DNA of 64,000 nt, from the sequence record PZ452579.1; one strand, given 5' to 3'. Numbering within the stretch: position 1 is the first letter of the stretch; every line of letters begins with the position of its first letter. This document shows, piece after piece, positions 3,630 to 62,441 of the stretch. The notes under the pieces were generated by a model that worked only from the letters and a program-made list of their open reading frames with translations, had not been told where the DNA came from and made no database searches. A program made the translations under genes and the position numbers. The DNA is from a phage.

Positions 3630-3842
3630 TCATATGCATATCAATGCCCATATCTTTAGAATAAAAATATTCATCAAGATATCCGGCAAATTTTCCTTTA
3701 ATATAAAGGACATCTTCACCACACGGGTGGTCGTCAGGATACGAATATCCTGACGACGTAGACGATACTTTTCCATTAAGAATTTAATTTCAGTTTCAAA
3801 TTCTTCATCATTATTAAAGGCATCTTCAATTGAATAACGCAT
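3630..3842 (-). CDS. UvsY.-1-like small protein
   Basis: 70-aa ORF directly downstream of uvsY; synteny. Confidence 0.6.
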   Translation of the reverse strand: MRYSIEDAFNNDEEFETEIKFLMEKYRLRRQDIRILTTTRVVKMSFILKENLPDILMNIFILKIWALICI

Positions 3843-4255
3843 TATTGCCCCGCTTCAAATTCTCGCATATCCTGGATATGTTTAAGTGCAAAACTACGAG
3901 ACTTAACTGCGTCAAGTGCACCACTACAGAACTCAAGTAAAATTCCCCAGTATTGTAAAGTAGTCTCTATTTTAAGCACATCTTTATCTGCAGCCAGGAC
4001 AGTTTTCATTTCAGATTTCTCGTATCGGTCCATACTGAATTCATCACCATCACCTCGTCCCGAGTAGTAGTCTAATCTTGCTTTTAGAGCAGTTTTCTTC
4101 TGAGTCTCTATACGCAACATTTCTTTACGAATAAATGAGTGCTTACGTAGCCATTTGCTGTATAACTTAACATTATTCGCCGTCTCATATTGCAACTTTG
4201 TCGTATCAATAGCTAAGTCTGCGTCTAACTCTTCCTGTAAATCTTCCAGCTTCAT
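3842..4255 (-). CDS. uvsY: UvsY recombination mediator protein
   Basis: 137 aa from internal Met (MKLEDLQEEL...); matches remembered T4 UvsY (LQYWGILL, SGRGDGDEFSMDRYEKSEMKTV); track ORF extends further 5' through the upstream region. Confidence 0.93.
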   Translation of the reverse strand: MKLEDLQEELDADLAIDTTKLQYETANNVKLYSKWLRKHSFIRKEMLRIETQKKTALKARLDYYSGRGDGDEFSMDRYEKSEMKTVLAADKDVLKIETTLQYWGILLEFCSGALDAVKSRSFALKHIQDMREFEAGQ

Positions 4256-11989: not shown

Positions 11990-12018
11990 AACGTTTTCCT
12001 CATGTTGTTGATGGGATG

Positions 12019-12048
12019 ATAGTATCACACATCCATGTGTTTGTAAAC
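12019..12048 (-). promoter_or_regulatory. T4-type early promoter (minus): -35 GTTTACA, 17-nt spacer, -10 TACTAT
   Basis: + strand atagta...tgtaaac; followed by GAGG RBS and ATG at 11989. Confidence 0.55.
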
Positions 12049-16963: not shown

Positions 16964-17418
16964 AAAGAGTCTCTTAATAGGTTTAACACATCAATAAATT
17001 CAGCTTCAGTTAGTATTGTATCATCTTTTGTTAGACCACTAGCCATGCTGTGCTTCAAAATTTTTCCTTTAGAGGCTTGTAAGGCATCACGAAACCCCTT
17101 GTTTTGGATCGCGGCTTCAAAATATGCATTTGTGTATAATTCTTTCCACGCTTCGGAGTATCTTGAAAATGGAACTCCTAACCAGAAGAGAGTCCCACGG
17201 TCCTGAGCTCTTGCATAAGACCTTCCTGCTTGCTGTGCAGCCAATCCAGACAACCCAAATATACGTCTTTGTTGTTCAACATTTTTCACCTTACATCCTT
17301 GGAGAAATCCTTCAAGACCTCCGAATTGAATACCATCCATAACAAAAGGCCATTGAGCAAAGTTACTTAATGCACATGACGGCCACTTGAAATTACTTCT
17401 TATTTCTAACTCAGGCAT
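16960..17418 (-). CDS. Hypothetical protein (30.3 position)
   Basis: 152-aa ORF, overlaps neighbours by 4 nt. Confidence 0.6.
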   Translation of the reverse strand: MPELEIRSNFKWPSCALSNFAQWPFVMDGIQFGGLEGFLQGCKVKNVEQQRRIFGLSGLAAQQAGRSYARAQDRGTLFWLGVPFSRYSEAWKELYTNAYFEAAIQNKGFRDALQASKGKILKHSMASGLTKDDTILTEAEFIDVLNLLRDSL

Positions 17419-17603
17419 TTTAAACCTTTAATAGGAGATAGTTCTTTACCCATACGTATGTCAGAAGTCCCATCAACCCATTGAACAGCATACGCTTCAT
17501 TGATAATTCCAGCGGCGGTTTTAAATTCATGGAGAACTTTAAAAATCATCCCAGGGATTCCAACACCTTTTAATTGGACTGTTTGTGCTATTAAAAATTT
17601 CAT
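17406..17603 (-). CDS. Hypothetical small protein
   Basis: 65-aa ORF with early promoter upstream. Confidence 0.5.
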   Translation of the reverse strand: MKFLIAQTVQLKGVGIPGMIFKVLHEFKTAAGIINEAYAVQWVDGTSDIRMGKELSPIKGLKCLS

Positions 17604-17627: not shown

Positions 17628-17658
17628 ATTATACTCTAATCCGTCCTTGGATGTGAAC
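17628..17658 (-). promoter_or_regulatory. T4-type early promoter (minus): -10 TATAAT, -35 GTTCACA
   Basis: + strand attata - 17 nt - tgtgaac; member of the ccttgg subfamily. Confidence 0.45.
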
Positions 17659-18272
17659 TACTTAACGAAATTAATTTCTACCGGATGAACAACAGGTTGA
17701 GCAGTGATATATTGAGTAATTGCTTTCATGACTAGAGCTTCAGAACCAGGATTTTTCTCAACGAATTCACATGCTTGGTTATGAGCTTCAAGTTCACTTA
17801 GTAAACCACTTCGTTGGCATCCACGGTCTTGAGTACCCTGTTCAGATAAAAAGACGACGTTGTATTTTTCATCGTCATACGGTTTAGACGGTTGAGCAAA
17901 TGTTCCTTTACTTCCAAAAGGAGAGTTATGACGCCACATCACGCCGTGAGGAGTTTCAACCTTCGTATATTCATGCGGGCCATTTTTCTTAGTTTCTTGA
18001 TGTGGAACTTCGTAGACCTTAGGGTTAGGACATTCAATAAAATGCTCATCTAAATCAGTCGAGAATATTAAAGAAAAACAATTACTGAATTTACCAACAC
18101 CTGCCTGATAAATTTTACCTTCAGAAGTTCTAATTTCACAAACCGAGCCGGCATCAGTAACTTCTAAAACTTCAAAAGGCTCAATAAGGTCATATGAGAA
18201 CATGTTTTTAAGGCGTGGAGTAATATCCCCATTTTTAAAATTCATTTTATAAAAAGTATTAACTTTAAACAT
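17658..18272 (-). CDS. Hypothetical protein (30.x region)
   Basis: 204-aa ORF. Confidence 0.6.
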   Translation of the reverse strand: MFKVNTFYKMNFKNGDITPRLKNMFSYDLIEPFEVLEVTDAGSVCEIRTSEGKIYQAGVGKFSNCFSLIFSTDLDEHFIECPNPKVYEVPHQETKKNGPHEYTKVETPHGVMWRHNSPFGSKGTFAQPSKPYDDEKYNVVFLSEQGTQDRGCQRSGLLSELEAHNQACEFVEKNPGSEALVMKAITQYITAQPVVHPVEINFVK

Positions 18273-18284
18273 AATTTCCTCAGT

Positions 18285-18300
18285 GGGAGCCGAAGCTCCC
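18285..18300 (-). other. Intercistronic UUCG-tetraloop hairpin
   Basis: gggagc cgaa gctccc between two co-oriented ORFs, directly upstream of RBS. Confidence 0.5.
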
Positions 18301-18307
18301 AGTTAAA

Positions 18308-18673: not shown

Positions 18674-18714
18674 TTTATTCTCCAGATGTTTAGGTTGTTT
18701 GTTGATACAGGTCT

Positions 18715-18744
18715 ATAATAACATAACCTGTACCAAAGTAAACT
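18715..18744 (-). promoter_or_regulatory. T4-type early promoter (minus)
   Basis: + strand ataata - 17 nt - agtaaac, within a gttgatacaggtctataata PeSL-like context. Confidence 0.5.
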
Positions 18745-19187: not shown

Positions 19188-19217
19188 ATCTTTTTAAACT
19201 TTTTCTGCCCTAAACGC

Positions 19218-19241
19218 ACAAAAGGGAGACCGAAGTCTCCC
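19218..19241 (-). terminator. UUCG-tetraloop hairpin terminator (minus)
   Basis: gggagac cgaa gtctccc; minus RNA hairpin followed by U-rich tract; identical stem-loop to the gene 32 terminator. Confidence 0.55.
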
Positions 19242-19246
19242 TAAAA

Positions 19247-20792: not shown

Positions 20793-21363
20793 AAAAGTTT
20801 CGGATTTGTTCCCAATTCAGAGAACGAAGATTATTACGAGAGTACTGAATTACTTCAATACCAGCTTGTTTTAGAATGTCAGCCCAATTTTCAGGAGATC
20901 TGTCATATAATTCTGCGTATACAACCTTTTTAATACCTGACTGTGTAATAGCTTTAGTGCAATCAGGACATGGAGAAAGCGTCGTATATAACGTAGCACC
21001 TTCAATAGAATTACCTTTACGAGCTGCAAACAAAATTGCATTCAATTCTGCATGGATTTCATTATTAGCAGACCATGCACTATGAGCGGCCCGATGTTCT
21101 TTAGCCAAAACAAAATTATCTGCCCGTCCAAATGCTGTAGTGCCTTCTTTATGACCAGCAACGATGACCGGGCTTGGTTTATTCTTCAACCAGCCGTTTT
21201 CGGATGCATGTTCGCAACAGTTAACACCACCTGAAGGAGAGCCATTATAACCTGTAGAAATAATGCGTCCATCTTTTTCAATGACCGCACCTACTTTCCA
21301 TGAACAACATTTTGATTCTTGAGAAATCAAATAAGCAATTTGAAGATATGTGCTAGCTTTCAT
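20782..21363 (-). CDS. cd: dCMP deaminase
   Basis: 193 aa; zinc deaminase motifs HAELNAI and PCPDCTKAI; synteny. Confidence 0.93.
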   Translation of the reverse strand: MKASTYLQIAYLISQESKCCSWKVGAVIEKDGRIISTGYNGSPSGGVNCCEHASENGWLKNKPSPVIVAGHKEGTTAFGRADNFVLAKEHRAAHSAWSANNEIHAELNAILFAARKGNSIEGATLYTTLSPCPDCTKAITQSGIKKVVYAELYDRSPENWADILKQAGIEVIQYSRNNLRSLNWEQIRNFCGE

Positions 21364-21599
21364 TATAGTGTTCCGTATACGCGAGTTGCTTCAACTAAAC
21401 CGTCACTGCCTAATTTAAGGCTAGTAATCTGGTCACCATCTTTAGGATTAACAATTATGAGAAAAGAACGTGGAGATTCTTGAATAACTCGTAATGTTGC
21501 ATCCTGGAAACGTTCAGACACTTTATTTATGAGTGCTTGAGCAAATTCTTTTACTTTAATCTGAAATTCGTGCACTGTAATTGGGTTTTCACTTAGCAT
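21363..21599 (-). CDS. Hypothetical protein (cd.x)
   Basis: 78-aa ORF with GAGG RBS and early promoter upstream. Confidence 0.6.
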   Translation of the reverse strand: MLSENPITVHEFQIKVKEFAQALINKVSERFQDATLRVIQESPRSFLIIVNPKDGDQITSLKLGSDGLVEATRVYGTL

Positions 21600-21628
21600 T
21601 TCGATTTCCTCATTGTGTTGGTAGAGTC

Positions 21629-21658
21629 ATAGTATCACAACTCCACCATGTTGTAAAC
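21629..21658 (-). promoter_or_regulatory. T4-type early promoter (minus): -35 GTTTACA, -10 TACTAT
   Basis: + strand atagta - 17 nt - tgtaaac. Confidence 0.55.
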
Positions 21659-21943: not shown

Positions 21944-22168
21944 TCAGTGTACAGTATTTACTTTAACTCGAACAACAAATTGCTCGGTCGGTTCGCCTAC
22001 AGGAACAAACTCTACATGATATTCGCCTTTGTAACGAGTATTCAGGTCGTTACGAATTTCGGTAAGCTTGTTGATTAATGTAGAACTCATATTAAGTCCC
22101 ACTAGTTTACGAAGCATTTTGTATGCTTCATCTTCGATTTCATGATGTTTATCGTACATAGTTTTCAT
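21944..22168 (-). CDS. Hypothetical protein (cd.x)
   Basis: 74-aa ORF. Confidence 0.55.
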   Translation of the reverse strand: MKTMYDKHHEIEDEAYKMLRKLVGLNMSSTLINKLTEIRNDLNTRYKGEYHVEFVPVGEPTEQFVVRVKVNTVH

Positions 22169-22339
22169 TTAACCATTCAATTGCTTGGACGACGTTATCA
22201 AATATACCGCCGCCCAAACGTTCTTCATGCTCATAGTCCAGCACATCAATACCGAACTGTCCATTTACTAAAGGCCAGGCTACAAACAAATATTCTTTAT
22301 GCTGTTCGATGGCCTCAATCACTTCATATAATCGTTTCA

Positions 22340-22340
<1 letters not shown>
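22149..22340 (-). CDS. Hypothetical protein (cd.x)
   Basis: 63-aa ORF. Confidence 0.5.
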
Positions 22341-23426
<1,086 letters not shown>

Positions 23427-23427
<1 letters not shown>

Positions 23428-23726
23428 TATTTTATTCCTAAGAAAGTTTCAAGAATACGAATGTTATGCTCGCGCCGGTCTTTATTAATTTCAGCAACGT
23501 TTTTATTAATTGACGTACTTCTAACGTTTGAAGAAATAAATTTAATCATATGACTTTTGAGTTGTTGCAAATCCAAACCTTTTTCTTTAGCAGCTTTACG
23601 AAGAGCTTTACCTGCTTCATCTAGGGCCTTTGCTGCATCTTTATCATAATTGACAAGTGACATTCCACGGCAGATATCAATATACTCATCTGACCGTTTG
23701 ATGTAATTCTCTAGTAATATTTTCAT
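23427..23726 (-). CDS. Hypothetical protein
   Basis: 99-aa ORF with GAGG RBS and early promoter upstream. Confidence 0.55.
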
Positions 23727-23754
23727 TTAGATTTCCTCAATTATCCATGGGAGC

Positions 23755-23784
23755 ATTATACTCTGCTCCCGAGAGTTTGTAAAC
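23755..23784 (-). promoter_or_regulatory. T4-type early promoter (minus) with -10 inside a 7-bp inverted repeat (PeSL-like)
   Basis: + strand gggagca ttatactc tgctccc gagagtt tgtaaac; minus reads GTTTACA - 17 nt - TATAAT. Confidence 0.6.
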
Positions 23785-24008
23785 TATTTTACTAAAGATT
23801 CGATATACTCATGAAGAGCTTTAGTCGCTACTGCCCACTTGTTCTGATATTCATTTTTCAGATTAGCACGAGACTGAACTAACAAGCGGTCGTTAGTCGG
23901 AGGCAAAGATTCTAATCGTTGAATCTGACGGCCATAAATCATAGCCGCCATTTCAGAGTCATAGATAAGTCCTTTAAGGTATTCATGCTGTTCTTTAGTC
24001 ATTGACAT
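23784..24008 (-). CDS. Hypothetical protein
   Basis: 74-aa ORF. Confidence 0.5.
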   Translation of the reverse strand: MSMTKEQHEYLKGLIYDSEMAAMIYGRQIQRLESLPPTNDRLLVQSRANLKNEYQNKWAVATKALHEYIESLVK

Positions 24009-24289
24009 TTTTCCTCTTTTAAACCACTACGATAATAACATAACATAGTCTTCTGGTCATGTACATATCTTTTTACGTCGTTTAACCAGATACGAAATTC
24101 TTGAGAGTCTTCAAATGGCATTCCAACCCACGGATTACCATCGATAACTTTTACTTGCCATTTCTGACTATATTCAACAATAGATTCAGGCCACGGCGGA
24201 TGTAAAGTTTCTTTAGGGCTTAAGGGCACATCCTGGGCACATCCAGCCAAAATGCCAATAGATAATACAACTGCGGTTAATTTAATCAT
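23999..24289 (-). CDS. pseT.2: Outer-membrane spanin (o-spanin lipoprotein)
   Basis: 96 aa; signal peptide with lipobox LAGC; adjacent to i-spanin as in T4. Confidence 0.7.
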   Translation of the reverse strand: MIKLTAVVLSIGILAGCAQDVPLSPKETLHPPWPESIVEYSQKWQVKVIDGNPWVGMPFEDSQEFRIWLNDVKRYVHDQKTMLCYYRSGLKEEKCQ

Positions 24290-24642
24290 TCTGAGAGCTT
24301 CCTGAGGTCTTCCGCAAAGGAATCGAAGGACCTGTTGATTTGTTTTTCGACCAATCCTGGTTTACTTGCCACCACGTTCTTCTTCTTCGAATCCTTACGG
24401 AGCTTTTCATTTTCGGCCTTAAGTTGGTCAACTAAAACACGGTTCTTATAAGTCATTTCTTCGATTGACTGATATTGAACCTTGAAGTCGTCTAATACTT
24501 TAGCATTGTTTTTAGCGGTCTCTTTGACAGAAGCTAATTCAGTATTCAACGAATCAACTTTGTTGTTTAAGACAACTATTGTTACCGTAGAAACTAGAGC
24601 AAAAGCTGCTACTATAGCATAAATCGGATTTACTTTAAGCAT
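24286..24642 (-). CDS. pseT.3: Inner-membrane spanin (i-spanin)
   Basis: 118 aa; N-terminal TM helix then coiled-coil region; overlaps o-spanin start. Confidence 0.7.
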   Translation of the reverse strand: MLKVNPIYAIVAAFALVSTVTIVVLNNKVDSLNTELASVKETAKNNAKVLDDFKVQYQSIEEMTYKNRVLVDQLKAENEKLRKDSKKKNVVASKPGLVEKQINRSFDSFAEDLRKLSE

Positions 24643-25130
24643 GTTTTAATAATCTCAATGATTTCATCTCGGGATAATCCATTGATAAGAACGGTTTTCA
24701 AACCATCACACTGGATTTTGTACGATTCAAACAATACACACAACTCTTCTGCTGTATGATACGGGCTTGAAATTCCGAGGCGGTTGAATTTGTCGGTAAG
24801 AGGGTCGCAAATGATGTAGAATTTTATACCTGCGATATGTACGTTTGGTTGACTAATATTAATGAACACATTAGCGTCGTATTTAGTCAAATTGTTTTGA
24901 AGAAATTCTACCATGGCATTAACTGCTTCCGGCATCGCTTCGCGTTTCTCTTCAGCGTATCGGGTGGAATACTCTTTTTGTTTTACTTTCTTTTTAAGAT
25001 TTTTGGCCAGTGTAACACGGAGGTCAGTAAGATAACCAACTGGACGTCCTTTCTTAAAGACTCGGATTCCGTCGGTTGTGTCTCCAAAAGCTGTTACGAC
25101 CATATCGTTAGTAATCAATTGCATATTCAT
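24630..25130 (-). CDS. alc: Alc (inhibitor of host transcription on cytosine DNA), by synteny
   Basis: 166 aa from internal Met with GGAG RBS (T4 Alc 167 aa); lies between rnlA and the spanins. Confidence 0.55.
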   Translation of the reverse strand: MNMQLITNDMVVTAFGDTTDGIRVFKKGRPVGYLTDLRVTLAKNLKKKVKQKEYSTRYAEEKREAMPEAVNAMVEFLQNNLTKYDANVFINISQPNVHIAGIKFYIICDPLTDKFNRLGISSPYHTAEELCVLFESYKIQCDGLKTVLINGLSRDEIIEIIKTCLK

Positions 25131-25160
25131 AATTTTCTCCTCGGGTTGTTGATAAAAGCC

Positions 25161-25190
25161 ATAGTAACACCTTCCTTGGTGTTTGTAAAC
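25161..25190 (-). promoter_or_regulatory. T4-type early promoter (minus)
   Basis: + strand atagta - 17 nt - tgtaaac. Confidence 0.55.
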
Positions 25191-25192
25191 CA

Positions 25193-26326
<1,134 letters not shown>

Positions 26327-26343
26327 TCAGTTAGTTTTTTTAA

Positions 26344-26373
26344 ATTGTACCACAATCCTTGTGGTATGTAAAC
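26344..26373 (-). promoter_or_regulatory. T4-type early promoter (minus): -35 GTTTACA, -10 TACAAT
   Basis: + strand attgta - 17 nt - tgtaaac upstream of rnlA. Confidence 0.5.
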
Positions 26374-26809: not shown

Positions 26810-27985
26810 TTAGAAATATTTTTTGTATGAATTGATTACATTTTGGTCTACATCATTATCAATTTGTGCAACAAGATAAGAACTGATTTCAACTTCCTGA
26901 GGAGCTGCTTGAACTAAATCAGAGTTCAGATATTCACGAATCCAAGGATAAGGATGTTTTGACGGAGCATCAGTAATTGGACACGGCAAACCACACTGTT
27001 TCATACGAGACACAGTCAAGTAATCAACAAAAGCACACATACTCTGTGTATTGATACCTGGACATGTACCGTCTTTAAAGAGGTGTGCAGCCCATTCCTT
27101 CTCTTGACTATTTACTTCCATAAAAATGTCAACTGCTTCTTGTTCACATTCTTTAGCAATTTGAACCCACTCATCGCCATCAGTACCAGATTGAAGTTGA
27201 CGGATAATGTACTGAGTACCCTTGAGATGGAGTTGTTCGTCACGAGCAATGAACTTCATAATCTTTGCATTGCCTTCCATAATTTCCATATTTTTATGGA
27301 AGTTGAAAGTACATGCAAATGATACGTAAAAACGAATAGCTTCTAAGGCGTTGATAACATGCAAACAGAGATAAAGAGACTTCATTAAATCACGCTTGGC
27401 GTTAAACATTATTTCTTCGTACATCTCAATATCATTCTGCTGACATGAGCCTATTGAACACTCATAAACTTCCTTAGCATTTTCCCAATGACGAGTCTTG
27501 ACTAGAACATCATCGTAATATTTACCTATTGATTCAGCTCGTTTCATGATTGCTTCGTCTAATACAATCTCATCAAATACTTTGGATGGATCGGTATAAA
27601 GATTTCGCATAATATGAGTATATGAACGAGAGTGAATAGTTTCACTGAATGTCCATGTTGCAACCCACGTATCTAATGAAGGGTCGGAAAGCAGTGCCAT
27701 AAGTACCGCAGATGGGGCCCTGCCTTGGATAGAATCCAATAATGATTGATACTTAAGATTGTTTGTAAAGATGTCCTGTTGGAACTGAGGAAGCTTATTG
27801 AACTGTGCAGAGTCCAACATCAAGTTTACCTCTTCGGGGCGCCAGAAAAATGACAAGGATTTTTCTATAAGTTCTTCAAAAACTTTATGACGCTGAATAT
27901 CATACCGTGCAAGACCAAGACCAGAACCAAAGAACATCGGTTCATTCAAAACATCGACTTGTTGTGTGTTAAAAACTGTACTCAT
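26810..27985 (-). CDS. nrdB: Ribonucleotide reductase small subunit (intron-less)
   Basis: 391-aa single ORF with R2 di-iron ligand motifs; no group I intron or I-TevIII ORF. Confidence 0.93.
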   Translation of the reverse strand: MSTVFNTQQVDVLNEPMFFGSGLGLARYDIQRHKVFEELIEKSLSFFWRPEEVNLMLDSAQFNKLPQFQQDIFTNNLKYQSLLDSIQGRAPSAVLMALLSDPSLDTWVATWTFSETIHSRSYTHIMRNLYTDPSKVFDEIVLDEAIMKRAESIGKYYDDVLVKTRHWENAKEVYECSIGSCQQNDIEMYEEIMFNAKRDLMKSLYLCLHVINALEAIRFYVSFACTFNFHKNMEIMEGNAKIMKFIARDEQLHLKGTQYIIRQLQSGTDGDEWVQIAKECEQEAVDIFMEVNSQEKEWAAHLFKDGTCPGINTQSMCAFVDYLTVSRMKQCGLPCPITDAPSKHPYPWIREYLNSDLVQAAPQEVEISSYLVAQIDNDVDQNVINSYKKYF

Positions 27986-30296: not shown

Positions 30297-30337
30297 ATAT
30301 TCCTCAGTATAGGTTGATAGACATTACTCCAAACGGG

Positions 30338-30367
30338 ATAGTATTTATCCCGTTAATTTATTATACA
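30338..30367 (-). promoter_or_regulatory. Possible early promoter within a 7-bp inverted repeat (PeSL-like) upstream of nrdA
   Basis: aacggga tagtattta tcccgtt; -35 match is weak. Confidence 0.35.
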
Positions 30368-30383
30368 CTTTTAAACTGAAGCG

Positions 30384-31500: not shown

Positions 31501-31515
31501 TTAACACCTATATAA

Positions 31516-31863
31516 TCAATACGGTTTAGCATCAAATTTTCTTTCAATTTCAGGCGTGAAATATAATTCTTTACCACGCTTAGAAAAGCGACCGATAATA
31601 TGATAATTATTTTCGTCGAACGTGATATTACCGAGGTCCATAGCTTTTAACCAATCATCAATACTTCTGTGCAGTTTTATATCAAAATTCCAGTATTGAG
31701 AACTATTACCGCGGATACTACAAGCAGATTCAGTAAAACAACTACTATAAATCTTGTCTTTAGGAACTACTAATTGATAAACACCTTTAATAAACTGAGG
31801 ACCTTGCCACTTTGGCTGTTTCGCATCTTCTTCTAATAGAATAGGGTAATAATTAAAATTCAT
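31516..31863 (-). CDS. Hypothetical protein inserted between frd and td
   Basis: 115-aa ORF; in T4 frd and td abut, so this is extra relative to T4. Confidence 0.6.
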   Translation of the reverse strand: MNFNYYPILLEEDAKQPKWQGPQFIKGVYQLVVPKDKIYSSCFTESACSIRGNSSQYWNFDIKLHRSIDDWLKAMDLGNITFDENNYHIIGRFSKRGKELYFTPEIERKFDAKPY

Positions 31864-32447
31864 TTATATACACTCTCAGTAATTTCGGTGAGTTCATCGA
31901 TTCTGTAGTAATGAGATTCTACCATAGAACGTTGAAGCATAATATCTTGGATGAAATCTTTATCAAGTTGAACATCTGAATTAACACGACATTTCTTAAT
32001 GATTTTAGTCATCACGATTTCATCGGCATAAGGCAGGGCTTGTTTTAATAGAGCAGGGCCACCAATAACAGATACATCAACATGTTCAGTAGAAAGTTTA
32101 AACGGTACGTCAGTTGCAGGGCTAAACAGGTTAATTTCACCACCCATTACCAAGGTAATAAATTCAGATTGGGTGATATAGAAATGCGCAAATTCGTTGG
32201 TTTTGGACCTAGGCAGTTTTCTGGCCATATCAGTGACAACCACATGAGTACGATCTGGGAGTAGACGAGGTAATGATGCAAAAGTCTTAGCACCCATAAC
32301 CATTACAGTGTTTTTAGTGCGAGCAACAAAGTTACTCATATCTTGTTTGATATGCTTCCATGGAAGTCCATCACCTAATCCAAAAGCATATTCCAGTTTA
32401 TCATCAACTGTTTTAGACGGTGCGCATGCGAATACTAATTTAAGCAT
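31860..32447 (-). CDS. frd: Dihydrofolate reductase
   Basis: 195 aa; DHFR motifs GLGDGLPW and MGAKTFASLP; matches T4 Frd. Confidence 0.93.
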   Translation of the reverse strand: MLKLVFACAPSKTVDDKLEYAFGLGDGLPWKHIKQDMSNFVARTKNTVMVMGAKTFASLPRLLPDRTHVVVTDMARKLPRSKTNEFAHFYITQSEFITLVMGGEINLFSPATDVPFKLSTEHVDVSVIGGPALLKQALPYADEIVMTKIIKKCRVNSDVQLDKDFIQDIMLQRSMVESHYYRIDELTEITESVYK

Positions 32448-32688
32448 TTTTAAGTCCTTTAATAACTTTTTGGATTTGTGATTTAGACGAAACTAGTTCT
32501 GTCTGAATTTCCCAACCATCGGTTTGGTCAAATGTTGTAACACAAACACGAGGTTTTGTTGTGTATCGTCCAGACAAATCAAATGCATCACCAATGAATT
32601 CGGCCAAATCCGGATGGTCTAAATTAACTGAAGTATAAACTTCATATCCGACATCAGCGCCTTGAGAGTATTCAACAACAACATTCAT
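32440..32688 (-). CDS. Hypothetical protein (frd.1 position)
   Basis: 82-aa ORF. Confidence 0.55.
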   Translation of the reverse strand: MNVVVEYSQGADVGYEVYTSVNLDHPDLAEFIGDAFDLSGRYTTKPRVCVTTFDQTDGWEIQTELVSSKSQIQKVIKGLKNA

Positions 32689-32690
32689 AA

Positions 32691-32939
32691 TTATTTCCTC
32701 AGATTTTTCTTAACAACTTTCCAATCAGCTTTAAACGATTCAACATCAGAGTGGTGAATCCAGAATCCTGCACTTTCACCATCTTCGTAGAGTGGACATC
32801 CATCACATTCTTCGTTCCAACCCATTTCACGTAAAGCTTCTTCAGCTTGTTCAAGGAGTTCAGCGTCTTTACCAACGATGTTGAAGTACCATTTACCTCT
32901 AACTTCAGAATCTTTGATGCTCTGGCGTTGCAATCTCAT
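32691..32939 (-). CDS. Hypothetical protein (frd.2 position)
   Basis: Start set at ATG 32939 (MRLQRQS...) with GGAG RBS; the track start at 32954 corresponds to a GTG codon. Confidence 0.55.
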   Translation of the reverse strand: MRLQRQSIKDSEVRGKWYFNIVGKDAELLEQAEEALREMGWNEECDGCPLYEDGESAGFWIHHSDVESFKADWKVVKKNLRK

Positions 32940-33000
32940 TTTATTCTCCTTCACTTTTATTTGATAGGGCTATGTTATAGTAGCCCTATCTTGTTATAAA

Positions 33001-33393: not shown

Positions 33394-33421
33394 TTTGATT
33401 TCCTCATGTTGTTGATAGGTC

Positions 33422-33451
33422 TATACTAACACATCCAGGGAAGAAGTAAAC
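33422..33451 (-). promoter_or_regulatory. T4-type early promoter (minus) in a gataggtctata PeSL-like context
   Basis: + strand tatact...agtaaac. Confidence 0.45.
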
Positions 33452-33482
33452 AACTTTTTCGGCAATTTACAGATACTCAAAA

Positions 33483-33500
33483 GGGAGACCGAAGTCTCCC
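33483..33500 (-). terminator. Gene 32 transcription terminator (UUCG-tetraloop hairpin plus U-tract)
   Basis: gggagac cgaa gtctccc 7 nt after the gene 32 stop; minus RNA has UUCG loop and downstream U-rich tract. Confidence 0.7.
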
Positions 33501-33506
33501 GATTTA

Positions 33507-46646: not shown

Positions 46647-47318
46647 ATGGGAGGTAATATGGCAGCACCAAAAGTATCATTTTCGCCTAGTGATATTTTA
46701 TTTGGGTTGCTAGACCGCATTTTCAAAGATAACGCCTCTGGAAATATTCTTATTTCAAGAGTTGCTGTTGTAGTTCTTTTGTTCCTAATGGCACTAATAT
46801 GGTACAAAGGGAATATTTTTATGGATTATTACGTGAGGTCGAAATATGATACTTACACAGAAGTAATTCAAAAAGAAAGAAATACACGATTTGAATCTGC
46901 GGCTTTAGAACAACTACAAATAGTCCACGTCACATCAAGGGCGGATTTTAGTTCGGTGTATTCTTTCAGACCTAAAAATCTAAATTATTTCGTCGACCTT
47001 ATTGCGTATGAAGGTAAGTTACCTAGCACAGTAACTGAAAAATCTATGGGAGGATTTCCTGTTGATAAAACGACAGCAGAATATTCGGTCCATTTAAGTG
47101 GACTTCACTTTACTTCTAAAACAGATTTTGCTTTCTTACCTACCAAATCAAAAACTCCGGAACTGGCGTATATGTATAGTTGTCCTTACTTCAATTTGGA
47201 TAACATATATGCGGGAACTGTTTCTATGTATTGGTATAAGGGGTCGGATGTGTTAAATGAAGAACGCTTGGCTGCAATATGCAACCAAGCAGCAAGGATA
47301 TTAGGGCGGGCTAAATAA
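46647..47318 (+). CDS. t: Holin T
   Basis: 223 aa; strong identity to T4 holin (MAAPKVSFSPSDILFG..., single N-terminal TM, C-terminal ARILGRAK). Confidence 0.95.
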   Translation: MGGNMAAPKVSFSPSDILFGLLDRIFKDNASGNILISRVAVVVLLFLMALIWYKGNIFMDYYVRSKYDTYTEVIQKERNTRFESAALEQLQIVHVTSRADFSSVYSFRPKNLNYFVDLIAYEGKLPSTVTEKSMGGFPVDKTTAEYSVHLSGLHFTSKTDFAFLPTKSKTPELAYMYSCPYFNLDNIYAGTVSMYWYKGSDVLNEERLAAICNQAARILGRAK

Positions 47319-50170: not shown

Positions 50171-50194
50171 GCACAAAAGGGAGCCGAAGCTCCC
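50171..50194 (-). terminator. UUCG-tetraloop hairpin terminator downstream of gene 52
   Basis: gggagc cgaa gctccc; minus RNA hairpin followed by UUUUGUGC. Confidence 0.55.
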
Positions 50195-50270
50195 TAATCA
50201 TGTTTGTCCAACCAATACAGCCAAATCACTAGTGCAGCTATTGCACTGAGAAATCCTAAGGCTAGGGCAC

Positions 50271-51939: not shown

Positions 51940-52386
51940 TTAGTAACTCTGCAGAATGAATTTGAAATTATCTGCCAGAAGACGGTTCATTTCAGTGAGT
52001 GTTTGATATTCTGATGTATGATTGCGAGTGAATGCCAGAGCCAATTGTCCTTTACCGTAACCAGTAGTCAGGGGTTTCATGTTCTTAGCTGCAACAAAGA
52101 TTACATCATATTCAATATTGTTAGTGCCCATGGTACGGGCTAGTTGCGAACGGCCTTGACGAATGTGAGAAAGAATTGCATCCAACCCTTGTTTAGAACG
52201 TTGACGTCCTACAAAGAATCGTGCTGCTACTTGTCGCCAATCAGATGAACCTTTAACAAAGAAGTAAAAACCTTCACGAGAACGAAACTCTTTAGAAACT
52301 TCAGAACCGTATTCACCATTACGAACTACTGCAACAACTTCACCACCAACTGCCAGAAGGTCTTTACGAGTTAAATATTTGGACAT
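51940..52386 (-). CDS. ndd: Ndd nucleoid disruption protein
   Basis: 148 aa; matches T4 Ndd (NQRSKQG...[51 protein letters not shown]). Confidence 0.92.
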
Positions 52387-52430
52387 ACTAATTTCCTCAA
52401 TTGATTAATGTTTTTGTAATCCATGAGAGC

Positions 52431-52460
52431 ATTATACTCTGCTCTCAAGAGTTTGTACAA
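52431..52460 (-). promoter_or_regulatory. T4-type early promoter (minus) for ndd; near-copy of the promoter at 23755
   Basis: + strand gagagca ttatactc tgctctc aagagtt tgtacaa; -10 TATAAT inside an inverted repeat. Confidence 0.6.
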
Positions 52461-52462
52461 TT

Positions 52463-52663: not shown

Positions 52664-52692
52664 TTTGATTTCCTCATGTTGTTGATAGGACT

Positions 52693-52722
52693 ACTATACC
52701 ATAATCCTACCTTGATGTAAAC
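52693..52722 (-). promoter_or_regulatory. T4-type early promoter (minus): -10 TATAGT, -35 GTTTACA
   Basis: + strand actata - 17 nt - tgtaaac, gataggactacta context. Confidence 0.55.
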
Positions 52723-53178: not shown

Positions 53179-53204
53179 GATGTTATCCTCTTTTAGATAG
53201 GACT

Positions 53205-53234
53205 ACTATATCATAGTCCTACTTAGTTGTAAAC
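53205..53234 (-). promoter_or_regulatory. T4-type early promoter (minus) with aggacta/tagtcct inverted repeat
   Basis: + strand actata - 17 nt - tgtaaac. Confidence 0.55.
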
Positions 53235-57532: not shown

Positions 57533-58633
57533 TTACGCTGTGAAGATTTTATCCCACATCGCAACAACTGCATCTCGGTTATACTTCTTCCATACTGCTT
57601 CAGCACGTTTAACTCGAGCTTCGTACGTGTCAGTGAATTCTAATACAGCTTTTGTGTAAAGCGCAACTACTTCTTTCTTAGGAGTAGAGGAATCAATTTC
57701 TACACGCACAGTATCTGGGTCGTATTCAAATGTCGCATGAGGATAATCCTTAAAAACTAACTGGATTACAGGGACACCTTTAGAGATGGCTTCAATAGAA
57801 CTATTCTCTACCGTACCTGTGTCAGGACACGTATTAATAAGTGCTTTAGCTGTTTTAAGACGTTCCATGATTTCACTGTGTGGAGCATCAATAATAACAG
57901 GATACTTAGCCGGTGGTGCCCATTTGCTTGGACAATAACCAATACCATTTTCGCCTAGTGCTTTAATCGCTTCAAGAGCAACATCAGTACGACGCATTTT
58001 AGTGTCATAACGTTGTGCACTAATAATCAGATCAGTCGCCGGAAGAACTTCAGGTTTCTCATTCAAACAAATAACCGGATAATCTTCGGCTTCAAACAAC
58101 GGATTTGCTCGCCAATAATCATAATCAATTTTGTCAGTCAGACCTGAAGTCATATGACAATATTTGCGTTCAAATTCACGGAAGGCTTTAGTAGGAGCAT
58201 AACTCTTACCACCATTCTTATGAATTTGAATAGTCTGGTCCCAAATTTGAACAATGCCACGAGATACCGGTTCAAATGGTGTTGCCATAAAATTCTTATG
58301 AACTTTAGAGAGACCTGCGTCTTTAATTGCCTGAACGGTTAGTTTAGTCGGTTCCATAGTAACAACAAAATCGTATTCATGGATGCCGGCTAGTTCAACA
58401 ATCTTACGAGCCATAGTATAACTCATACCTAGACTGAATTTAGTCAGATGACCAACAGGATGATGATTAACTTTCCAATCACCAAATGTGTCATTATCAA
58501 AACCGATATAATCAATATCGGCACCAATAGAAACTAAATATTTCAACACATTTAAATGTACTGCTTCAAGACCACCTTGTACACGGTCAGGATTAAATGG
58601 GACTGCACGAGATGGGATAAACATAACTTTCAT
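57533..58633 (-). CDS. Putative GT-B fold glycosyltransferase (GT4-like), inserted between rIIA.1 and gene 39
   Basis: 366 aa; N-terminal MKVMFIPSRAVPFNPDRVQGGLE and C-terminal ENSSIEAISKGVPVIQL resembling GT4 donor-binding motifs; fold assignment is motif-based only. Confidence 0.55.
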   Translation of the reverse strand: MKVMFIPSRAVPFNPDRVQGGLEAVHLNVLKYLVSIGADIDYIGFDNDTFGDWKVNHHPVGHLTKFSLGMSYTMARKIVELAGIHEYDFVVTMEPTKLTVQAIKDAGLSKVHKNFMATPFEPVSRGIVQIWDQTIQIHKNGGKSYAPTKAFREFERKYCHMTSGLTDKIDYDYWRANPLFEAEDYPVICLNEKPEVLPATDLIISAQRYDTKMRRTDVALEAIKALGENGIGYCPSKWAPPAKYPVIIDAPHSEIMERLKTAKALINTCPDTGTVENSSIEAISKGVPVIQLVFKDYPHATFEYDPDTVRVEIDSSTPKKEVVALYTKAVLEFTDTYEARVKRAEAVWKKYNRDAVVAMWDKIFTA

Positions 58634-61595: not shown

Positions 61596-61849
61596 TAAGT
61601 TGTACCGTTTTCAGTGATTTCACGGAAGATACCATAGATAGGCATTTCATCACCGAGTTTTTCGTAAACGTAAACCACTTCGGTGTAGCATAAAAATTCG
61701 GTCCAGTTTTTCTGTACAACAACTAAATCAGGATTAAACAGAACATCTTCAAACTCATCGATGTTTGAATCAGTAGTTACGTTTTTAATGATTTGACGTT
61801 TCATAATATTCTCCTCTTGTTTTGATAGGTCTATAGTATCATAGACCAT
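61577..61849 (-). CDS. Hypothetical protein
   Basis: 90-aa ORF with AGGAG RBS and early promoter upstream. Confidence 0.55.
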
Positions 61850-61862
61850 AGTTGTTGTACAT
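61833..61862 (-). promoter_or_regulatory. T4-type early promoter (minus) with ggtctat/atagacc inverted repeat (PeSL-like)
   Basis: + strand ggtctatagtatcatagacc ... tgtacat. Confidence 0.45.
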
Positions 61863-62386
61863 CATTTTAGCAAAATAAAATCAACTTGTTCTGCCAATGA
61901 ACGTCTGAACATTAATTGACAACTTCCGAGGATGAAATCAGGTGCTTCATAGACCGCGATGTAGTATCCTTTAGCTTTCAAGAGTTCAACATCCACCTGG
62001 TCATCAAACCATGCATAAACCGCGTCAACACTTTCAAATCCAAAATAGAACCCTTGAGCCCAATCTTCACTCAATTCAAATGTATGCTCAATTCTATAGT
62101 ATCTTAAGATATTTTGTTCAAGGAGTTTGTCTTCATTTACTGTAGGACGATTAGGGACATTATAGTTGTCGCCGTGATGGTAGAAGTTACCTGAGAGTAT
62201 TCCATGCTTATCAAGGAACTCCCATGTTTCTTCAGAGTTGTCGGTGCCCGACCAACCGTATGGCGAACGAGGTTCTTTATTCCAAGAGGTTTCCCAAATT
62301 CTGACGGCTTTACCGTCTTCGATAGCAATTCCTGGTAATGATTCACGTTGAGTACAAAAACTACGTTCTACGCGGTAAACTAACAT
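61862..62386 (-). CDS. Hypothetical protein
   Basis: 174-aa ORF. Confidence 0.6.
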   Translation of the reverse strand: MLVYRVERSFCTQRESLPGIAIEDGKAVRIWETSWNKEPRSPYGWSGTDNSEETWEFLDKHGILSGNFYHHGDNYNVPNRPTVNEDKLLEQNILRYYRIEHTFELSEDWAQGFYFGFESVDAVYAWFDDQVDVELLKAKGYYIAVYEAPDFILGSCQLMFRRSLAEQVDFILLK

Positions 62387-62397
62387 ATTATTCTCCT

Positions 62398-62441
62398 CTG
62401 GTTGATATGGTTATAATATCAAAACCAGAGGAGAAGTAAAC
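62398..62441 (-). promoter_or_regulatory. T4-type early promoter with -10 in the loop of a perfect 13-bp stem (PeSL-like)
   Basis: ttctcctctggtt gatatggttataatatcaa aaccagaggagaa gtaaac; the stem includes the RBS complement. Confidence 0.6.

Follow-up and report, generated by a model that had tools for sequence, protein, structure and literature searches.

Early promoters in the phage DNA analysed here (record PZ452579.1; "the window", 64,000 nucleotides) are combined with stem-loops: an inverted repeat is built into 11-12 of the 19 early promoters, and its pairing exceeds what base composition gives by chance and is kept among paralogs and orthologs. We read these composite early-promoter/stem-loop cassettes as the equivalent, in Mosigvirus, of the PeSL (promoter-early stem-loop) cassettes known from coliphages RB49 and phi1 (Arbiol et al. 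2010, PMC2839356), with the hairpin acting in read-through RNA, and put the probability of this reading at roughly 70%. The kind of element is already described, as the PeSL of RB49; what is new is its occurrence in the RB69-like lineage, where the cited sources do not describe it. RB69 is absent from the text of the 2010 PeSL paper (PMC2839356), the passages of the 2014 paper on which we draw (Comeau et al., PMC4122927) do not mention it, and the text of Nolan et al. 2006 has no mention of hairpins, stem-loops or inverted repeats.

Early promoters and their embedded hairpins

Bases 22000-26000 share 97-98.6% identity with Escherichia phage RB69 and many other Mosigvirus genomes, and with its 98% identity to RB69 the window is an RB69-like T4-type phage (Mosigvirus). 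According to the RB69 annotation, the order of genes is uvsW, alt, the pseT-nrd-td-frd-32 early region, the tail-fibre genes and the asiA-motA-ndd-rII-39 early region. The early genes lie on the minus strand, therefore all sites of the finding are read as reverse complements. A motif scan of the window, combined with inspection of all minus-strand gene junctions, gave 19 T4-type early promoters of the form TTTACA-N16-18-TATAAT, all on the minus strand. Each of the 19 sites fits TT(T/G)AC(A/T)-N16-18-TAnnnT and lies 5' of a Shine-Dalgarno sequence (SD) and ATG, which corresponds to the sigma-70-like promoter of the PeSL (Arbiol 2010). Nolan et al. 2006 list predicted early promoters of RB69, and our 19 promoters correspond to these: Pe:136687, for example, is our p23783, and Pe:165022, Pe:165283 and Pe:165795 are likely p52459, p52721 and p53233 by their order in that list.

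A cassette takes up a gene junction of 55-80 nt and comprises the upstream stop codon, a GTTTACA-16-18 nt-TATAAT-like promoter, a short leader, the SD and the ATG. In junction sequences such as TAGTTTACA...GAGGAAATCTAAATG, the upstream stop lies in an AT-rich region and the SD and start codon stand at the 3' end, again as in the PeSL; the A+T content of the 25 nt 5' of the -35 is 48% for p62440 and 64-88% for the other 18 promoters. The 19 copies have the common leader CTATCAACAACATGAGGAAATCAAAATG and are mostly found 5' of ORFs of 66-174 aa without known function, some of them before conserved genes (ndd, cef). The sequence-only reading had them flanking most small accessory ORFs, which is not supported as stated: an early promoter is present at only 18/69 early-region junctions, about 10 of these with a hairpin enclosing the -10. 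A near-identical 5' leader, CTATCAACAACATGAGGAAA(T/A)C..AATG, follows several early promoters on the minus strand (12000-12020, 33400-33425 and 52665-52690).

The embedded hairpins form two classes. In class 1 the spacer holds the 5' arm, a loop of about 8 nt takes in the -10, and the 3' arm has the final T of that box as its first base and ends near +3 (-7 to about +3); this 3' arm is based on the conserved start-region motif (-7..+3) TAGNCCTATC, and the spacer arm varies to match it. Members are 23783, 52459, 52721, 53233, 33000, 61861 and 21657, with larger loops in 18742 and 62440. TAGNCCTATC or a close variant is also present at the three unstructured promoters 19186, 33450 and 50152. Class 2 is a small hairpin wholly within the spacer, frequently with an 'aagga' loop, clearest in 26372 and 25189 and weaker in 12047, 17657 and 63389, while 63947 has a small repeat of this type in its spacer, yet its best fold encloses the -10. 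Structure is weak or absent in 7/19 promoters.

The focal cassette p23783 (23724..23786, minus strand) reads TAG-TTTACA-aactctc-GGGAGCA-gagTATAA-TGCTCCC-atggataattGAGGAAAtctaaATG and consists of the upstream stop TAG, the -35 TTTACA (23783-23778), the -10 TATAAT (23760-23755) in the loop of the hairpin GGGAGCA-gagtataa-TGCTCCC (23749-23770), the SD GAGGAAA and the ATG of a 99-aa ORF. Its paralog p52459 (52384..52462, minus strand) is located 5' of ndd and reads TGTACA-aactct-TGAGAGCA-gagTATAA-TGCTCTCA-atggat..., with the -35 TGTACA at 52459-52454, the -10 TATAAT at 52436-52431 and the hairpin TGAGAGCA/TGCTCTCA, that is (T)GAGAGCA-gagtataa-TGCTCTC(A), at 52424-52447; its leader has a 16-nt insertion relative to p23783, and the cassette is unchanged in 11 orthologs. 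The two copies had been described as nearly identical over about 40 nt with paired differences, and both observations hold: there are 3 differences in about 38 positions, of which two together turn stem pair 2 from G-C into A-U, and the third gives an extra U-A pair. A focal cassette, TGGGAGCA...TGCTCCCG with the -35 TATACA, also occurs at about 418-455 of the metagenome contig OBRI01002173.1, matching nearly every position of the 38-nt core, and precedes an ORF of at least 114 aa without detectable similarity to ndd or the 99-aa ORF.

The remaining cassettes, likewise on the minus strand, carry other stems. The p52721 hairpin GGTAGGATTA-tggtatag-TAGTCCTATC (52684..52711) contains two G.U pairs and folds on the sense strand only (z = -5.7 vs antisense z = -0.2), and the p53233 hairpin GTAGGACTA-tgatatag-TAGTCCTAT (53197..53222) has the -10 TATAGT in its loop. 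In p61861, GGTCTAT-gatact-ATAGACC (61828..61847; arms 61828-61834 and 61841-61847) is found 5' of a cef-like gene. The 13-bp perfect stem TTCTCCTCTGGTT/AACCAGAGGAGAA of p62440 (62391..62435; arms 62391-62403 and 62423-62435) has the -10 TATTAT in its loop, folds with an MFE of -23.9 kcal/mol (z = -7.2) and holds in its 3' arm the SD GAGGAG of gene 61862-62386. The p21657 hairpin TGGTGGAGTTGT-gatact-ATGACTCTACCA (21619..21648), with three G.U pairs, is kept in T4 with pair-preserving changes, and the p18742 hairpin TTGGTACAGGT...ACCTGTATCAA around the -10 TATTAT (18702..18736) is kept in T4 as well. Class 2 is represented by p26372, with TACCACAA-gga-TTGTGGTA (26348..26366) between -35 and -10, by p25189, with the spacer hairpin AACACC-aaggaa-GGTGTT (25166..25183), and by the weak small spacer hairpin ACACA-tgga-TGTGT of p12047 (12027..12040).

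The p33000 hairpin GATAGGGCTA-loop-TAGCCCTATC (32963..32990, minus strand) has perfect 10-bp arms (32963-32972 and 32981-32990) and an 8-nt loop (32973-32980), which reads ctataaca on the sense strand in the window vs tgttatag in most relatives, the exact reverse complement. By this flip the sense strand loses the TATAGT -10 and the plus strand gains TGnTATAGT. The flipped loop was found at 98% identity or more in 3 phage records only (pEB20, moha and KAW3E185); most of the other ~140 records covering the p33000 query match at 83-91%, as an unflipped loop would give. All five sites named in the sequence-only reading thus exist, all on the minus strand; the 13-bp stem, the 10-bp arms and GGTCTAT/ATAGACC are real, with coordinates that were off by one to a few bases.

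Pairing beyond chance, covariation and strand

Folding covered, for each promoter, the stretch from the spacer to 14 nt past the -10, and the result was compared with shuffles in which the -10 was kept and spacer and downstream bases were shuffled separately. The summed MFE of the 19 promoters was -167.6 kcal/mol vs -61.9 +/- 8.6 kcal/mol in the shuffles (z = -12.3), a value reached in 0/500 of them, indicating that inverted repeats are enriched around the -10. Individually, 11/19 promoters gave p <= 0.01, and a second folding tool returned z values of -2.9 to -7.2 for nine sites. Only 0.9% of the 37-nt minus-strand windows reach -12 kcal/mol, while 9/19 promoters reach -13. The stable stem-loop within or next to the promoter that belongs to the PeSL is found in 11-12/19 promoters. 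An Rfam search of the window returned no family.

Covariation was evaluated in an ungapped alignment of 29 distinct paralog and ortholog variants, with the register fixed by the -10 and orthologs taken from eight Mosigvirus genomes, T4 and metagenomic contigs. Among these variants, 92.4% of the stem cells pair, vs 79.6 +/- 1.2% in shuffles (reached by 0/500), and sliding the partner by 1-3 columns lowers pairing to 32-52%. Both sides have changed in 8/10 pairs, and the covariation score is 0.540 vs 0.264, values to be read with the relatedness of the variants, the modest number of independent substitutions and a structure read from the same sequences in mind. Position N of TAGNCCTATC, the variable one, changes in step with the base it pairs with among the paralogs, being T/A in 52721 and 53233, C/G in 33000 and A/U in 61861. 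Stem changes between orthologs mostly keep pairing. The outermost focal stem pair is G-C in the window, G.U in seven phages or contigs (RB69, 348Ecol098PP, NHEP29, SCS57 and 3 contigs) and A-U in three (LF82-5 and 2 contigs), and other stems alternate between G-C and G.U, U.G and U-A, or C-G and U.G. For the focal pair we used about 9 true homologs among 16 matches of a metagenome pattern scan, the rest being chance matches; an IMG/VR search with Ndd gave 3 close loci only, too few for statistics. The hairpins of p18742 and p21657 are kept in T4, where the wider region has about 75-77% nucleotide identity. The suggestion that structure is under selection is thus borne out by the pairing of 92.4% and the two-sided changes: the inverted repeat around the -10 is selected for pairing.

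The two strands are not equivalent. The summed fold of the 19 promoters is -167.6 kcal/mol on the sense strand vs -130.1 kcal/mol on the antisense strand, the stems contain 5 G.U vs 1 A.C, and no structure is seen on the antisense strand of p52721 or p21657 (z = -0.2 and -0.6). A G.U pair on the sense strand is A.C on the other, therefore a two-sided cruciform would be penalised. This asymmetry favours a single-stranded structure of the sense strand over a symmetric cruciform, a palindromic protein site or an antisense terminator, and the wobbles, found mainly on the sense strand, suggest a hairpin formed in read-through RNA, not a cruciform or a site bound by protein. RNA and single-stranded sense DNA are not strictly told apart by this asymmetry, because same-strand DNA hairpins, too, tolerate G.T better than any other mismatch.

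Terminators, a proposed role in read-through RNA and rival explanations

Three promoters of the window, 19186, 33450 and 50152, have a canonical terminator with UUCG loop and U-tract just 5' of the -35, and their fold z is close to 0. The terminator of p19186, a promoter without embedded hairpin, lies at 19216..19245 (minus strand), and the same terminator-then-promoter arrangement is seen at 33480-33502 (p33450) and 50176-50197 (p50152). Within the TAGNCCTATC group, the promoters without an embedded hairpin are exactly these three. With 12/19 promoters structured, all three terminator-bearing promoters would be unstructured by chance with a probability of about 0.036 (hypergeometric). TransTerm predictions in RB69 (Nolan et al. 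2006) place terminators at those three places (132140, 146032 and 162727) and none at the embedded hairpins. Our minus-strand terminator scan of the window also made no call at the embedded hairpins, whose 3' arms are followed by AUGGAUAA, AACAACAUG, AAAUAAAAG and similar sequences; a U-tract follows none of them. They were accordingly rejected as classical intrinsic terminators.

With its -10 in the loop, the promoter should itself start transcription at or after the 3' arm, and the hairpin would therefore form only in RNA from upstream early promoters. We propose that in such read-through RNA it would be an intercistronic structure that attenuates or pauses transcription, or a barrier that stabilises the 3' end, and that it may take over the job of the canonical UUCG-loop terminator in very compact junctions, between the upstream stop and the next start site. 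Because it is without a U-tract, classical termination is a less likely role for it than attenuation, pausing or a barrier at the 3' end. At p62440 the SD is hidden in the 3' arm, so translation would be expected only from transcripts started at p62440, with the read-through RNA masked. Across the first 10 promoters, SD accessibility in read-through vs promoter-initiated RNA was inconsistent; at p62440 the helix clearly includes the SD. The repetition of 40-85 nt of cassette sequence could incidentally provide homology for occasional recombination. A literature search for T4 5'/3'-end maps gave nothing usable. A bolder version, which we consider speculative and rather doubtful, has the embedded hairpins serve as RNA-level insulators and not terminators, which would hide the AU-rich promoter sequence, set points of processing or 3'-end protection and give each small early gene its own mRNA fate; loops with perfect arms could also flip, as at 32973-32980, switching the -10 off or to the other strand.

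Several explanations compete with a hairpin acting in read-through RNA. The repeat may be extruded in DNA as a cruciform or single-strand hairpin, tuning promoter melting or serving recombination or cleavage (for example by endonuclease VII) and so driving cassette shuffling. The exact inversion of the p33000 loop relative to about 138 relatives speaks for this, as such an event needs arms interacting in DNA; crossovers of RB49 mini-circles were mapped within the loop (Arbiol et al., PMC2839356), and RB49 stems fold equally well on either strand, with no sense/antisense difference in the folding of RB49 promoters. Several stems in the window, however, fold on the sense strand only, their G.U becoming A.C on the other, and the cassettes show no significant enrichment of breakpoints. 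Poor extrusion is also established for stems of 7-10 bp with 8-nt loops, and we hold a DNA-level role to be unlikely. The p33000 inversion is equally used by an account in which the repeats have no function of their own and are by-products of promoter duplication and quasi-palindrome (template-switch) mutation, mimicking compensatory evolution by paired changes made in one step, since it demonstrates that such DNA events occur here. Many of the promoters are obvious paralogs (23783/52459 and 52721/53233, for example), and T4 rII is a well-documented case of templated quasi-palindrome correction. Yet at least 7 stems of unrelated sequence are positioned alike with respect to the -10, T4 and the window have kept two hairpins in common, and hairpins are missing at just those promoters that have a terminator. 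Many genomes keep G.U intermediates, which fits stepwise change under a pairing constraint, whereas a template switch would give perfect pairs; mutation without function is accordingly a quite improbable origin of the repeats.

Two further explanations place the function elsewhere. The hairpins could terminate late or antisense transcription on the plus strand, where the complement of the -35 and UP region, rich in T, comes after each of them, and a simple scan does list 53198-53221 and 61828-61847 (both plus strand) as terminator-like. The antisense folds are, however, much weaker where the sense strand has G.U (-3.2 vs -13.7 and -6.9 vs -16.0 kcal/mol), and the T-run begins at least 5 nt past most stems, which makes plus-strand termination very unlikely. 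Palindromes overlapping the -10 are in the typical position of an operator, at which a dimeric regulator might shut off early promoters, but the stem sequences (GGGAGCA, TAGGACTA, GATAGGGCTA, GGTCTAT, TGGTGGAGTTGT and CTCCTCTGGTT) are unrelated, and what is conserved is pairing and not sequence, with G.U pairs breaking the palindrome. We give regulator binding hardly any credence. Single-strand hairpin promoters of the N4 type were rejected, as the promoters here are ordinary sigma-70 -35/-10 promoters.

Other hairpins of the window were noticed in passing. The UUCG-tetraloop hairpin GGGAGCttcgGCTCCC (18283-18303, minus strand), without U-tract, lies directly 5' of the SD of gene 17658-18272 and at the right-hand boundary of the segment 17425-18266, which is replaced in RB69, NHEP29 and Bas45. 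At 30318-30383 (minus strand), 5' of nrdA, a MotA-box-like middle promoter CGCTTCA-N11-TATAAT is followed by the leader hairpin GGGATAaatacTATCCC and GTTT; this hairpin is possibly an attenuator between the middle promoter and nrdA. Very stable local minus-strand hairpins (-17.6 to -19.5 kcal/mol), unconnected with promoters and apparently in coding sequence, lie at 3729-3765, 22183-22219, 23919-23955 and 47264-47300, the last three of them inside cd.4-, pseT.1- and asiA-like ORFs.

Gene content and relation to known promoter/stem-loop elements

Gene-content breakpoints were collected by aligning the window to eight Mosigvirus relatives, which gave 57 distinct boundaries, 17 of them intragenic. 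Breakpoints used 31/69 early-region junctions, and promoter-bearing junctions made up 10/31 of these vs 18/69 overall; in this small sample of 8 Mosigvirus genomes the enrichment at promoter junctions is not significant (odds ratio 1.8, p = 0.41). Indels common to the largest number of relatives are at promoter-less junctions or are insertions of homing endonucleases and introns. The former include the 1094-bp DAHP-synthase gene at 21348-21366, the ORFs 31503-31859 and 32451-32691 and about 200 bp at 17418-17425, and the latter are at 27312, 27986, 30951 and 35175. The DAHP-synthase gene at junction 21348-21366 is present in six relatives and missing in the window and RB69. A 115-aa ORF between td and frd (31516-31863) is common to NHEP29 only, an 82-aa ORF (32440-32688) is missing in RB69, NHEP29, SQ17 and G2285, and a 366-aa ORF (57533-58633) is missing in Bas45.

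Single events of a cassette-like kind do exist. An LF82-5-specific ORF is flanked by hairpin promoters, one of them with the new stem CAGGGTAAT/ATTACCCTG; the repeated p33450 leader is interrupted in RB69 by an additional gene, RB69ORF245c, and is present on both sides of it; and Bas45 (PaulHMueller) has insertions at p53233 and p21657. Contig OBRI01002173.1, with the focal cassette before an ORF dissimilar to both downstream genes of the window, is a further case of cassette behaviour. Of the supposed part in modular gene shuffling, these individual events stand, but a general association of breakpoints with promoter junctions is not significant in this small sample (p = 0.41). It is plausible that recombination at the cassettes is an occasional event.

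The assignment to PeSL elements agrees with both the PeSL definition and the sequences of RB49 itself. Like the PeSL of RB49 and phi1, the cassettes have an upstream stop in AT-rich sequence, a sigma-70-type promoter, a stem-loop between -35 and -10 or over the -10, an SD and an ATG; they share G-T stem pairs (noted in PMC2839356) and occur in many copies before small early ORFs. In RB49, 12/28 promoters are structured and both classes are present, with GGGGATC...GATCCCC in the spacer and GGGGGTA-gtaata-TACCCCC around the -10, the latter in the same register as the hairpins of the window. Unlike those of RB49 and phi1, the stems of the window are of mixed sequence on TAGNCCTATC and not polyG/polyC, the -35 is TTTACA/TGTACA instead of TTGACA, and the association with breakpoints is not significant. 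PeSL were extended to T4/PST and KVP40/nt-1 by Comeau et al. 2014 (PMC4122927), who place the stem-loops of T-even phages 5' of the promoter. Most hairpins of the window, in contrast to this T4/PST type, are inside the promoter, in a T-even relative, and in the homologous region of T4 2/11 promoters are structured, namely the orthologs of p18742 and p21657. The embedded hairpins resemble the canonical terminator-then-early-promoter arrangement (T4/PST-type PeSL) in lying between the upstream stop and the next start, the two being mutually exclusive in the window, whereas the canonical terminators have a UUCG tetraloop and a U-tract and are located 5' of the -35. In RB43, many of the terminators that TransTerm predicts, with stems of 8-9 bp, fall within predicted early promoters, for example 3977-3995 with Pe:4005, 26343-26364 with Pe:26374 and 95389-95409 with Pe:95419 (Nolan et al. 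2006, Additional files 3 and 6). From these RB43 predictions, promoter-embedded hairpins seem widespread among T4-like phages.

Two other systems offer partial parallels. In T4, a promoter inside a hairpin mediates translational control of genes e, soc, 49 and I-TevI, the internal promoter being late or middle. Only p62440 is like this, with its SD in the 3' arm of a predicted -23.9 kcal/mol helix and its -10 in the loop; unlike in T4, its promoter is early, and in the other cassettes the SD is outside the hairpin. REP-like intercistronic hairpins are stabilisers that form 3'-end barriers in polycistronic mRNA. Like them, the hairpins of the window are stable, without U-tract and just past the stop codon of a polycistronic transcript; unlike them, they are superimposed on a promoter, and by this analogy their stabilising role is putative.

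For phage engineering, the 60-nt cassettes represent compact, self-insulating expression units. PeSLs were proposed as regulatory and recombination 'connectors' of plastic T4-type regions, and the function of the stem-loop rests on one reporter construct, the terminator effect in RB49 having been shown for a single stem-loop, PeSL211/210 (PMC2839356). Our data set, in which breakpoints are not enriched at cassettes, tempers the shuffling claim. The pairing kept on the sense strand, together with the mutual exclusivity with canonical terminators, leads to a testable model in which an RNA hairpin acts on read-through transcripts.
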